Below, one piece after another: positions 19,874 through 37,300 of a DNA stretch of 64,000 nt. Within the stretch, counting starts at the first letter, position 1; each line of letters starts with the position of its first letter. The position numbers and the translations under genes were made by a program. Below the pieces are notes generated by a model. It did no database searches and was not told the origin of the DNA. It saw only the letters and a list, made by a program, of their open reading frames with translations. The stretch is taken from the NCBI GenBank assembly GCA_964016885.1, contig OZ024740.1, positions 53,320,001 to 53,384,000 of the forward strand. Direction: 5' to 3'. The stretch comes from Eledone cirrhosa (Eukaryota).

Positions 19874-21748
19874 GTTTTTATCGTCTCCGTTGAACCGGTA
19901 CGTACTCACGCTCTATGCAAAATTAGTCTGCCCACTACTAATTTTCATAGAAAAAGCATATAACGATATGTGCTTTTACGATTCTCTAGAGAGGCCGGAA
20001 GATAGGTAAATATTGCTGATGAGATGTAACAACATCGAAACTAGTTCAATATTCCTTGTCTGGCTTTCTGGAGAATAGAGGAAAGGTGTTTCCTCAAAAA
20101 CCAGTATGACTCTAAAAACCGGTTTGTCTGTGTGTTTACATACAGAATAGCTGGACACTCGCAGTAAAGTGACCAGTGAAAAACTCGGTACATCTACATA
20201 TGTATACGTGTGTGTATTCATATGCATACTAGTATTTCAGTATACATATGTGGATGTACATTTTTAACTTAATTGTTTAAGCGTCAGTCATACAAAAGTG
20301 AGTTACAAACGAAACGAAATTTAATTTCGTTTCGTTATTTGTTTTTATCGTCTCCGTTGAACCGGTACGTACTCACGCTCTATGCAAATTAGTCTGCCCA
20401 CTACTAATTTTCATAGAAAAAGCATATAACGATATGTGCTTTTACGATTCTCTAGAGAGGCCGGAAGATAGGTAAATATTGCTGATGAGATGTAACAACA
20501 TCGAAACTAGTTCAATATTCCTTGTCTGGCTTTCTGGAGAATAGAGGAAAGGTGTTTCCTCAAAAACCAGTATGACTCTAAAAACCGGTTTGTCTGTGTG
20601 TTTACATACAGAATAGCTGGACACTCGCAGTAAAGTGACCAGTGAAAAACTCGGTACATCTACATATGTATACGTGTGTGTATTCATATGCATACTAGTA
20701 TTTCAGTATACATATGTGGATGTACATTTTTAACTTAATTGTTTAAGCGTCAGTCATACAAAAGTGAGTTACAAACGAAAACGAAATTTAATTTCGTTTC
20801 GTTATTTGTTTTTATCGTCTCCGTTGAACCGGTACGTACTCACGCTCTATGCAAATTAGTCTGCCCACTACTAATTTTCATAGAAAAAGCATATAACGAT
20901 ATGTGCTTTTACGATTCTCTAGAGAGGCCGGAAGATAGGTAAATATTGCTGATGAGATGTAACAACATCGAAACTAGTTCAATATTCCTTGTCTGGCTTT
21001 CTGGAGAATAGAGGAAAGGTGTTTCCTCAAAAACCAGTATGACTCTAAAAAACCGGTTTGTCTGTGTGTTTACATACAGAATAGCTGGACACTCGCAGTA
21101 AAGTGACCAGTGAAAAACTCGGTACATCTACATATGTATACGTGTGTGTATTCATATGCATACTAGTATTTCAGTATACATATGTGGATGTACATTTTTA
21201 ACTTAATTGTTTAAGCGGTCAGTCATACAAAAGTGAGTTACAAACGAAACGAAATTTAATTTCGTTTCGTTATTTGTTTTTATCGTCTCCGTTGAACCGG
21301 TACGTACTCACGCTCTATGCAAATTAGTCTGCCCACTACTAATTTTCCATAGAAAAAGCATATAACGATATGTGCTTTTACGATTCTCTAGAGAGGCCGA
21401 AGATAGGTAAATATTGCTGATGAGATGTAACAACATCGAAACTAGTTCAATATTCCTTGTCTGGCTTTCTGGAGAATAGAGGAAAGGTGTTTCCTCAAAA
21501 ACCAGTATGACTCTAAAAACCGGTTTGTCTGTGTGTTTACATACAGAATAGCTGGACACTCGCAGTAAAGTGACCAGTGAAAAACTCGGTACATCTACAT
21601 ATGTATACGTGTGTGTATTCATATGCATACTAGTATTTCAGTATACATATGTGGATGTACATTTTTAACTTAATTGTTTAAGCGTCAGTCATACAAAAGT
21701 GAGTTACAAACGAAACGAAATTTAATTTCGTTTCGTTATTTGTTTTTT
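19874..21748 (+). repeat. Tandem array of about 466-467 bp x 4 with one hammerhead per unit (retrozyme-like)
   Basis: Units are nearly identical. HHRs at 20009-20053, 20475-20519, 20942-20986 and 21410-21454. Confidence 0.93.
20009..20053 (+). ncRNA. Type I hammerhead ribozyme (representative of 4 copies)
   Basis: AATATTG-CTGATGA-GATGT-aaca-ACATC-GAAA-CTAG-TT-CAATATT. 7-bp stem I, 5-bp stem II, palindromic ACTAGT stem III, GUU site. Confidence 0.92.
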
Positions 21749-34358: not shown

Positions 34359-37300
34359 CGGAAAAAATGAAACGAAATTTCATTTCCCACTCTTAGTACG
34401 GCTGTTACTTAATTATAAGTACGTACACGTACATACATATATGTATACAGACGTACAGTAGTATGTATATATATATATACATACATGCACACATATATAT
34501 ATGTACGTATGGTGTGTATGTATGTATATATGTGTGCATGTATGTATGTATATATATATACATACTTCTGTACGTCTGTATATATATATGTATGTACGTG
34601 TACATACTTATCTTTAAGTAACAGCCGTACTAAGAGTGGGAAATGCAATTTCGTTTCATTTTTTCCGTTTATCGTTTTCGGTGCACCCGACCGATTGAGC
34701 CGCTTGATATTCAAATTGGGCTATTCAGCCGTTAATATGCATAAGGAACGTATATACTTTCGGACGTTCAACTATCTGGCAGGAAGGTATACGTTGCTGA
34801 CGATAGCTAACAAGCTTGAAATTAGTACAGCGTTCCTTTGTCAGTGTTGAACAAACGAGCAACGGTGTTTGCTAGACACTACGGCTTAATACAGATGTTT
34901 GTTTACAAACACACCGAGCATTATAATAAATGTTTGGTGAATCCATACGTACATATATATATGTGTGCATGTATGTACATATTTATACATACTACTGTAC
35001 GTCTGTATACATATATGTATGTACGTGTACATACATATATTTAAGAAACGGCCGTACTAAATGTGAGAAATGAAATTTCGTTTCATTTTTTCCTTTTATC
35101 GTTTTCGGTGCACCCAGCCGCGTGACCCACCCGATATGCAAATTGGCTACTCAGCCGTTAATATGCATAAGGAAAGTATATACTTTCGGACTTTCAACTA
35201 TCTGGCAGGAAGTATACGTTGCCGACGATAGCTAACAAGCTTGAAACTAATGCAGCGTTCCTTTGTCAGTGTTGAACAAACGAACAACGGTGGTTGCTAG
35301 ACACTACGGTTTCATCCGGGATGTTTGTTTACAAACACACCAAGCATTATAATAAATGTTTGGTGAATCCATACGTACATATATATATGTGTGCATGTAT
35401 GTAAATATATATATATATATACATACTACTGTACGTCTGTATACATATGTGTATGTACGTGTACATACTTATATTTAAGTAACAGCCGTACTAAGAGTGG
35501 GAAATGAAATATATAAATGAAATATATATATATATATACATACTACTGTACGTCTGTATACAAATATGTATGTACGTGTACATACTTATATTTAAGTAAC
35601 AGCCGTACTAAGAGTGGGAAGTGGAATTTCGTTTCATTTTTTCCGTATATCGTTTTCGGTGCACCCGGCTGATTGACCCACTCGATATGCAAATTGGGCT
35701 ACTCAGCCGTTAATATGCATAAGGAAAACATATACATTCGGACGTACAACTATCTGGCAGGAAGGTATACCTTTTAGACGATAGCTAACAAGCTTGAAGC
35801 TAGTACAGCGTTCCTTTGTCAGTGTTGAACAAACGAGCAACGGTTATTGCTAGACACTACGGGTTAATACGGGATGTTTGTTTACAAACACACCGAGCAT
35901 TATAATAAATGTTTGGTGAATCCATACTTACATATATATATGTGTGCATGTAAGTACATATATTATACATACTACTGTACGTCTGTATACATATATGTAT
36001 GTACGTGTACATAATTATATTTAAGTAACAGCCGTACTAAGAGTGGGAAATGAAATTTCGTTTCATTTTATGCGTTTAACGTTTTCGGTGCACCCGACCG
36101 ATTGACCCACGCGATATGCAAATTGGGCTACTCAGCCGTTAATATACATAAGGAAAGTATATACTTTCGGACGTTCAACTATCTGACAGGAAGGTATACG
36201 TTGCTGACGATAGCTAACAAGCTTGAAACTAGTACAGCGTTCCTTTGTCAGTGTTGAACAAACGAGCAACGGTGGTTGCTAGACACTACGGCTTAATACG
36301 GGATGTTTGTTTACAAACACACCTAGCATTATAATAAATGTTTGATGAATCCATACGTACATAGATATATGTGTGCATGTATGTACATATATATACATAC
36401 TACTGTACGTCTGTATACATATATGTATGTACGTGTACATACTTATATTTAAATAACGGCCGTACTAAGTGTGGGAAAGGAAATTTCGTTTCATTTTTAG
36501 TTTTATCGTTTTCGGTGCACCCAGCCGATTGACCCACTCGATATGCAAATTGGGCTACTCAGCCGTTATCATGCATAAGGAAAGTATATACTTTCGGACG
36601 TTCAACTATCAGGCAGGAAGGTATACGTTGCAGACGATAGCTAACACGCATGAAACTAATACAGCGTTCCTTTGTCAGTGTTGAACAGACGAGCAACGGT
36701 GGTTGCTAGACACTACGGCTTAATACGGGATGTTTGTTTACAAACATAACGAGCATTATAATAAATGTTTGGTGAATCCATACGTACATATATATATGTG
36801 TGCATGTATGTATATATATACTACTGTACGTCCGTATACATATATGTATGTACGTGTACACGCTTATATTTAAATAACAGCCGTACTAAGAGTTGGAAGT
36901 GGAATTTCGTTTCATCTTTTCCGTATATCATTTTCGGTGCACCCGGCTGATTGACCCACTCAATATGCAAATTGGTCTACTCAGCCGTTAATATGCATAT
37001 GGAAAGCATATACTTTCGGACGTTCAACTATCTGGCAGGAATGTATACGTTGCTGACGATAGCTAACAAGCTTGAAACTAGTACAGCGTTCCTTTGTCAG
37101 TGTTGAACAAACGAGCAACGGTTATTGCTAGACACTACGGGTTAATACGGGGTGTTTGTTTACAAACACACTGAGCATTATAATAAATGTTTGGTGAATC
37201 CATACGTACATATATATATATGTGTGCATGTATGTACATATATATACATACTACTGTACGACTGTAAACATACATATGTATGTACGTGTACATACTTATA

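Follow-up and report, generated by a model that had tools for sequence, protein, structure and literature searches.

Two diverged families of a proposed tandem hammerhead retroelement in Eledone cirrhosa end at two fixed sites beside (TA)n, with an insertion anatomy like that of Penelope-like elements

How are non-coding repeats that carry a hammerhead ribozyme motif transcribed and re-inserted in an animal genome? The question is raised by a stretch of 64,000 nucleotides of Eledone cirrhosa (assembly GCA_964016885.1, contig OZ024740.1, positions 53,320,001 to 53,384,000, forward strand), called the window below, which holds two tandem arrays of such repeats, A and B. The initial annotation of this DNA took them for diverged satellites with compensatory changes inside and outside the ribozyme, and proposed that selection acts on a larger RNA fold. 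We propose, with a probability of roughly 0.78, that A and B represent two diverged families of a single non-coding tandem retroelement with a hammerhead motif, a retrozyme lacking long terminal repeats (non-LTR retrozyme). Its insertions terminate beside (TA)n at either of two fixed sites; it likely has an internal promoter of the small nuclear RNA (snRNA) type, is predicted to be cleaved and circularised, and is likely copied by the reverse transcriptase (RT) of a Hydra-clade Penelope-like element (PLE) starting on either side of a conserved long-range helix.

Alignment of the A unit against the medoid B unit yielded 61% global identity. With the ribozyme excluded, the upstream part reached z 8.4 (global) and 9.7 (local) and the downstream part 11.1 and 11.8, with 0/1000 dinucleotide shuffles scoring as high in each of the four tests. 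The annotated homology is thus significant on both sides outside the hammerhead core. The weakest region by sequence was the 110 nt with the GGUG hairpin (7/1000 global and 166/1000 local shuffles). The units have a GC content of 35-39% and no open reading frame (ORF), stop-to-stop frames across the arrays being at most 143 aa. The annotated B unit length of 425 bp is true of one copy, while the typical unit has 427-430 bp.

The two arrays are two of at least six non-LTR retrozyme families in this genome. A arrays identical across 311 bp were found on several contigs, and a search with B returned 2191 candidates. Two pattern searches gave 24,668 matches (B and C types; control 5) and 11,133 matches (control 2; mostly A types among the 100 listed) with a slight overlap, in total about 35,000 hammerhead units in the 3.0-Gb, microsatellite-rich genome. 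At about 450 bp each they make up an estimated 0.5% or so of it. Evenly spaced stretches totalling 600 kb contained ten A/B/C cores, which agrees in order of magnitude. A looser pattern of octamer plus core found 1,392 matches against 15 in the control and brought in families D and E, whose discovery thus depended on the octamer. When the 600 kb were scanned by descriptor, without requiring the octamer, 25 hits came up, namely the 10 A/B/C cores, 4 others and 11 of the new, young family J (C3:190.00 Mb and 20 further loci). J has a 310-nt unit without the octamer, an AACA loop in stem II, a CGCG stem III and a host distal element that forms stem I. The suggestion of a mobile structured RNA family is upheld by the dispersed arrays and the fold shared across subfamilies; the class itself, non-LTR retrozymes, had been described and was left unnamed by the initial annotation. 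LTR-type flanks were not seen at the insertions examined. A pattern scan of metagenomes returned three loci, none with the family anatomy when read by eye; one of these contigs has a minimal hammerhead ending in the identical ACTAGT palindrome and is otherwise unlike the retrozyme family.

Both hammerheads contain the CUGANGA, GAAA and UH core and three helices, with an open stem I and a minimal, palindromic stem III. The core is intact in 4/4 A units and in 21/37 B units, the octamer is intact in 33/37 B units, and the catalytic core is retained across six families. In Rfam the A hammerhead matched Hammerhead_HH9 with 36.5 bits (E 2.3e-7), under the gathering score of 52; the B hammerhead had no hammerhead match at E ≤ 1, and no match was found at gathering scores. 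Matches to miRNA families below threshold derive from the AT-rich hairpin and were set aside. Stem I, stem II, the AACA loop and ACTAGT lie where they had been annotated, with two corrections. ACTAGT cannot form a normal stem III hairpin and is instead one A-U pair closed by the palindromic CUAG. Between A and B, stem II indeed has two compensatory pairs, but also one broken pair, a U-U mismatch at the base of B's stem II. Similar features are known in the axolotl, as HHR_Amex1 also has a stem III of one pair with a palindromic tetraloop, and HHR_Amex2 shares with B the U-U at the base of stem II. Axolotl hammerheads with a palindromic stem III of this type are described as working in dimers (PMC7229834).

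Evidence of mobility comes from the insertion ends. The loci compared were top hits or first listed and thus not drawn at random. Wherever an A/A2 arm has a visible end (30 arms), it stops at monomer 226-234 (site 1, 14 arms) or 299-304 (site 2, 16 arms); 29 of the arms continue into (TA)n, and their 5' ends scatter from monomer 1 to 433. In tail-out inverted A/A2 insertions with both ends called, one end is short and the other long in 10/11 cases. Family J, found without the octamer, behaves in the same way: 5/5 two-armed inverted arrays end at 139 and 165, on either side of the 3' arm of a long-range helix, He. In A, D, E and J the first site is 5' of this arm and the second 3' of it, with differing spacing; the ends of D and E (23 and 10 arms) were read by eye with outliers included. 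The 3' ends of B and C are noisy and were not counted because the AT-rich hairpin matches (TA)n. Since the insertions lie in (TA)n, target-site duplications are unreadable. Among contigs aligned to the unit, loose (TA)n ends fall at 20815 (11 contigs), 21213 (5) and 20740 (1), matching both sites; these contigs may stem from the source sample and are not counted as independent.

This anatomy is the signature of PLE insertions: two ends, an inverted 5'-truncated arm and a (TA)n target as for Hydra. Hallmarks described for PLE insertions are an inverted truncated copy and, at one end, a tail of 30-40 bp (PMC8557442); in vitro work attributed the tail to a pair of internal RT starts within a stem-loop (PMC11167929). 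We infer that site 1 is a start of reverse transcription and site 2 a second such start. Private variants were carried by all monomers of an insertion, in both arms where two could be read (6/6, 5/5 and 11/11), which fits copying round one circle but also a transcript of a uniform source array. Variants alternate in parts of two A-type arrays, possibly owing to a dimeric template or later duplication. In addition, 4/30 A/A2 5' ends are no more than 15 nt away from the predicted cleavage site, where about 1 would be expected; linear monomers may have served as some of the templates, or the RT may stall at the ligation point.

The RNA fold outside the ribozyme is also shared. Predicted folds of the monomers gave z -10.5 for A and -3.9 for B. 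Separately folded A, A2, B2, B5, C, D and E have one helix order, consisting of the stem I extension, the hairpin Ha, He enclosing a variable domain, the helix Hg, and hairpins over the octamer and the TATA-like box. The stem I extension is weak in the annotated B copy (0.24-0.33) and Hg is short in family E. Covariation was tested on a sequence-only alignment of 50 natural units from nine subfamilies (drawn from 64 left after dereplication and length filters, of 140 extracted), with the ribozyme and the AT-rich hairpin excluded and partner columns permuted among pairs sharing the same letter. The tests are aggregate ones, as independent lineages are few and per-pair significance was not reached. 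On A's fold, 19 pairs showed double changes against 11.3 expected (10/5000 permutations), and the canonical fraction was 0.798 against 0.721 (0/5000). B's fold gave 12 double-change pairs against 4.7 (0/5000) and C's fold 17 against 9.2 (16/5000). The annotated covariation outside the hammerhead therefore holds with nine subfamilies but is modest between A and B alone, where 8 double changes were found on A's fold against 4.8 (312/5000) and, in the reverse direction, 7 on B's fold against 2.5 (13/5000). B's fold tested only against the other B and C subfamilies gave 4 against 1.7 (304/5000). When A's fold was applied to seven single B copies, 80-85 of 107-115 aligned pairs were canonical (73-78 expected) with 4-7 double changes against 2.4-3.3 (p 0.01-0.36). 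Covariation together with the shared helix order thus supports, between subfamilies, the proposal of selection on a fold larger than the hammerhead.

Outside the ribozyme, He is the best-supported element. Its 8 bp were located by family-specific motifs in 61/64 units, with 439/488 cells canonical; its arms are 80-180 nt apart, and at 6/8 positions the commonest pair differs on both sides among A, B, C, D and E; in B one position is broken. He was picked after inspection and therefore illustrates the aggregate test without adding to it. The two GGUG hairpins are present as annotated, and their stem is conserved among subfamilies. The loop, however, is variable (GGTG, TGTG, GATG, GTG, GTTA/GATA, GGG/GTG or TGA by subfamily), with GGUG in 26/37 B units and other loops in A2, B5, C, D, E and J, so a GGUG-loop domain as such is not conserved. 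The local outer helix drawn round it, taken as CTGG/CCAG in A and GTGT/ACAC in B, has a pairing probability of 0.00-0.01; in A this strand region pairs instead with the stem I extension (0.96). Within array B, no sign of selection on pairing was found among the genomic copies: paired columns had 0.98 changes per column against 0.78 in unpaired columns (p 0.86), with 0 double changes and 45 broken pairs. An apparent lowering of variation at paired sites (0.47 against 1.07) vanished once the structure was taken from another subfamily. Variation in array B is thus neutral to pairing, indicating that selection acts on the spreading lineages and not on the satellite DNA.

The conserved fold could instead serve only to make a compact, stable circle, with the starts set by local U-A microhomology with (TA)n rather than by the He/Hg junction. 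In general, the retrozyme circles that have been described show a high degree of self-pairing (PMC7229834), the ends found here have short TA-type microhomology, the loops vary and the helices slide in register. Nevertheless, TA dinucleotides and a long AT-rich hairpin occur throughout the unit, yet 30/30 A/A2 ends fall in windows of 9 and 6 nt, and the He 3' arm lies between the two windows in A, D, E and J despite the differing spacing. We therefore regard this explanation as rather unlikely.

A candidate helper is present in the same genome. A young PLE family has 83,725 candidates, of which the 128 scored are 98-100% identical, with open frames of up to about 790-820 aa. It has the RWR, DKT, CxCX5C, CxxC and CxH motifs, as in the (TA)n-targeting Hydra clade, an assignment made from motifs read by eye against PMC8557442. 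Similar to the retrozymes, this PLE has two 3' ends in (TA)n, about 79 nt apart. Other PLE families are present as well. An ORF with RT and GIY-YIG domains is absent from the retrozyme units, which work like a non-autonomous PLE.

Such units might also be detached terminal repeats (pseudo-long terminal repeats, pLTRs) of an autonomous PLE with the fold and the promoter inherited, as proposed for Xenopus retrozymes. There, 24/57 retrozyme families are homologous to known repeats, and 21/22 of the matched repeats are PLEs (bioRxiv 10.64898/2026.07.22.740005, available text); the PLE-like insertion anatomy reported here agrees with such an origin. Against it, no nhmmer hit at E ≤ 10 was obtained between the retrozyme profiles and the tested PLE loci and window stretches, a canonical hammerhead was not seen by eye in the terminal region of the commonest young PLE, and the beginning of family J matches the distal element of the host snRNA genes with 20 bits, at the spacing that the host has. 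We consider a pLTR origin doubtful.

Promoter-like blocks are another feature of the units; they are labelled here octamer, proximal sequence element (PSE) and distal element. The initial annotation had cited three blocks shared by A and B as evidence for the RNA fold. They are present, and AAAGCATATA occurs 19 times in the B array, but the cited B copy reads AAAGTATATA. Of these blocks, TATGCAAATT is the octamer and AAAGCATATA a TATA-like box; since TATGCAAAT and the TATA-like box resemble promoter elements of the host snRNA genes, their use as evidence for the RNA fold is not supported. As TATGCAAATT and AAAGCATATA resemble such elements, they are likely constrained at the DNA level. Across families the TATA-like box follows the octamer by 41-44 nt. 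In the host U6 genes, ATGCAAAT lies at -76 and -77 in two and a one-letter variant at -78 in a third, and TATA follows at -30. TCAG is found at -56 to -58 in nine genes for host U1 and U2, which also carry a TATA-like box near -31. Of the 12 host snRNA genes (U1, U2, U6), 11 have a common distal element, located at -257 to -288. This host layout, with a TATA-like box in U1/U2 and a proximal octamer in U6 (30 loci), may merit interest in itself.

The profile of the nine U1/U2 genes, run on both strands, placed its best site at octamer +13..15 in 36/64 units, which are not independent. This site ranked 1-2 in B, C, D and E and was significant alone only in E (0-1 of 200). In J, which lacks the octamer, the best PSE-like site ranked 1 (53/500 shuffles). 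J also has a distal-element match of 20.0 bits (0/500 shuffles) directly past the predicted cleavage site and 257 nt upstream of the start predicted from the best PSE-like site, and D has a match of 12.1 bits (0/200) in the same place. The distal element is absent in A (0.3 bits) and B (-7.9 bits), both with the U6-like octamer. Transcription is predicted to begin some 45-60 nt upstream of a cleavage site. As side observations, a block of about 29 bp containing the octamer occurs three times in direct succession in family E (nine loci), as expected of a DNA enhancer; five older single copies carry the octamer, the TATA-like box and a hammerhead-like core, and in one of them a distal-element motif stands directly upstream of the octamer.

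RNA polymerase III (Pol III) transcription like that of a U6-like short interspersed element (SINE), with T-run terminators that prime reverse transcription as the fixed 3' ends, is improbable. Runs of T inside a unit argue against Pol III, and A has T5 runs at monomer 215-219 and 297-301, where termination would precede a second ribozyme. Site 2 in A does coincide with the second run, and the octamer and its position do resemble the host U6 genes. However, site 1 in A is 7-15 nt beyond the T-run, the ends of D and J are not at runs of four T, the TATA-like box stands at a distance of 41-44 nt where U6 has 46-48, and one short plus one long end in 10/11 inversions would remain unexplained. Also in favour of this reading, schistosome hammerhead repeats are Pol III units (PMC2220036, PMC6765202). 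The last alternative, ordinary DNA satellites with paired changes through DNA-level repair of inverted repeats and amplification by unequal crossing-over, would suit the mosaic, neutrally varying array B and the lack of a significant G-U excess, but is highly implausible given identical dispersed arrays whose 3' ends are fixed while the 5' ends vary, the inversions, a catalytic core kept in six families, and He arms 80-180 nt apart.

Several results weigh against the proposed PLE-copied retrozyme. The nhmmer search without a hit, which covered 8 PLE loci and the window outside the arrays and so sampled few PLE families, bears on it too, and tail lengths vary by family (about 26, 55-60 and 75 nt); consequently the helper is inferred by class only. 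The U1/U2 profile ranks A's site at only 25-40 among about 850, and E is the one family for which the match is significant individually. A against B alone is borderline by double changes against paired columns (p 0.01-0.36), and of the predicted pairs, 102 in A and 62 in B, only 23 occupy exactly the same columns. Among single array-B copies, He exceeds 0.5 in only 12/33 and Hg in 6/33, and the consensus fold of 18 array-B copies lacks He. J favours a local alternative to He by 1.2 kcal/mol, with a He probability of 0.42. Finally, the excess of G-U over A-C is not significant (7 against 4; 9 against 4) and in 6/6 cases the minus strand of family D gives the better fold, both of which count against an RNA-specific reading.

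We propose the following cycle for the retrozymes. RNA polymerase II (Pol II) would, on a fairly good chance, start about 45-60 nt upstream of a cleavage site. The hammerheads, probably acting as dimers via the palindromic stem III, would cut the multimer, with the stem I extension keeping the monomer ends together for ligation; in this step we have good confidence. An endonuclease, very probably that of a PLE and with reasonable likelihood one of the Hydra clade, would nick (TA)n, and the RT would start internally at two sites; in vitro, two internal RT starts have a precedent in the lizard Poseidon element (PMC11167929). Rolling of the RT round one circle to give concatemers is somewhat favoured, and positioning of the RT by the He/Hg junction is given slightly better than even odds. 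Once inserted, the copies would decay neutrally. Going further, the unit might be a self-transcribing snRNA promoter turned RNA parasite and not a detached PLE terminal repeat, an idea we hold tentatively and at somewhat less than even odds. The host distal element, PSE and TATA-like box would be built into a unit of about 310 nt, with the distal element doubling as one strand of stem I (in J and D; the U6-like octamer instead in A, B, C and E), while the He/Hg junction would recruit the Hydra-clade PLE RT and set the two starts that lead to rolling-circle concatemers in (TA)n.

Table 1. Positions of the retrozyme arrays, their parts and associated features in the window.
Feature	Position	Strand	Remarks
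Array A	19874..21746	+	four retrozyme units, 466-468 bp, 99.4-99.6% identical; 3' end is insertion site 2, then (TA)n
200-N assembly gap	19674-19873		masks the 5' side of array A
(TA)n microsatellite around array A	15858..27826	n/a	
Array B	34497..50550	+	37 units, ~428 bp, mosaic, mean identity 91-92%
Inverted short arm of array B	34354..34512	-	terminates at site 2 in the (TA)28 tract 34303-34358
Type I hammerhead of A (unit 2)	20475..20519	+	predicted cleavage 20512/20513 after GUU
Type I hammerhead of B	36198..36240	+	predicted cleavage 36234/36235 after GUA
Stem I extension, 3' arm	20532..20542	+	pairs with 20914-20924 and closes the monomer; probability 0.96
Hairpin Ha (GGUG hairpin)	20544..20561	+	20078-20095 in unit 1; 36265-36280 in B; probability 0.98
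Long-range helix He, 5' arm	20570..20577	+	B: 36287-36293
Long-range helix He, 3' arm	20752..20759	+	B: 36458-36464
Helix Hg, 5' arm	20764..20769	+	pairs with 20838-20843, directly ahead of the octamer; probability 0.94
Insertion end site 1	20738..20746	+	monomer 226-234, immediately 5' of the He 3' arm; 14/30 A/A2 arms
Insertion end site 2	20811..20816	+	monomer 299-304; 16/30 A/A2 arms
Octamer ATGCAAAT	20849..20856	+	B: 36543-36550
TATA-like box	20890..20896	+	41 nt past the octamer; B: 36585-36591, 42 nt
Young Hydra-type PLE, 3' part	29155..31310	-	GIY-YIG end, 3' untranslated region, terminus in (TA)n; physically separate from the arrays

Comparison of 32 units of array B gave a mean identity of 91%, and the array shows no clear higher-order period (0.927 at lag 3 against about 0.921). 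Its right end is off the canonical sites, with an RT fragment of the long interspersed nuclear element (LINE) type within 90 bp (50638-51246; PF00078, E 2e-15). Elsewhere in the window, PLE fragments of four families lie at 3502-5225 (-), 14249-15688 (+), 30381-31310 (-) and 31333-32250 (+). Apart from its own copy, they are 31-43% identical to the young Hydra-type protein, and that at 31333 carries a hammerhead-like motif some 100 nt ahead of its (TA)n end. Pfam recognised none of 7 PLE fragments. A 622-bp tandem repeat at 7436-9247 with an inverted arm, both ends in (TA)n and CTGATGAG near the 3' ends, looks like another non-autonomous PLE-type element. A short element forms an inverted pair at 27843-28680 beside (TA)n, with a hammerhead-like motif at 28416 that has a 6-bp stem II, and a relative of it was found at one other locus. 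At four loci, different retrozyme families and PLEs are nested or adjacent within the same (TA)n tracts.

Compared with described animal non-LTR retrozymes, the elements of E. cirrhosa likewise come as tandem repeats, each unit a few hundred bp long and bearing a type I hammerhead, and are low in GC, non-coding, dispersed, highly self-paired and coexistent with PLEs. The conserved helix order between families, the two fixed 3' ends, the tail-out inversions, the (TA)n targeting and the likely promoter are described only here, going by the available text of PMC7229834 and bioRxiv 10.64898/2026.07.22.740005; in that of the latter the words tail, promoter, octamer, covariation and secondary structure occur 0 times. 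In contrast to Xenopus, no homologous PLE terminal repeat was found here among the PLE loci searched. Similar to Poseidon PAc (PMC11167929) and the Hydra-clade PLEs (PMC8557442), they show two adjacent, putative internal RT starts that lead to a tail, an inverted 5'-truncated arm, AT-rich or (TA)n targets and a type I hammerhead. They differ from these PLEs in lacking an ORF, in forming concatemers of at least 31 units and in having tails of 26-75 nt rather than 30-40; moreover, the retrozyme starts flank a long-range helix, whereas the PLE starts lie in an AC-rich stem-loop. An internal snRNA-type Pol II promoter has been reported for newt satellite 2 (as cited in PMC2220036 and PMC6765202), and in contrast to the newt and axolotl repeats, the promoter parts here resemble the U1, U2 and U6 genes of the own host. 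As in the SINE-like Sm-alpha repeats of schistosomes, the promoter of one unit would drive the next and the hammerhead would release monomers. Sm-alpha is transcribed by Pol III, whereas the snRNA-like elements and the internal T-runs argue for Pol II here.

How animal hammerhead repeats are transcribed and re-inserted is a question that has stood since the work on the newt satellite. PLEs were named as candidates for the mobilisation of retrozymes in 2020 (PMC7229834), and the link was argued from co-occurrence and homology in 2026 (bioRxiv 10.64898/2026.07.22.740005). Here, the insertions themselves show the PLE tail signature, and in several diverged families the putative starts flank a single covarying helix. 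No account of a conserved fold, of PLE tails or of snRNA promoter parts in invertebrate retrozymes was found in a literature search that covered titles and abstract openings, with most subscription papers out of reach. The host snRNA genes offer a promoter template for the retrozymes, and a small RNA structure may be all that a PLE enzyme requires for copying an RNA into (TA)n. If the unit is indeed an snRNA promoter turned parasite, the arrays would provide direct genomic evidence of how animal retrozymes insert, of which the same search found none, and the He/Hg structure would be a portable, structure-defined cis-signal for trans-mobilisation by PLEs.

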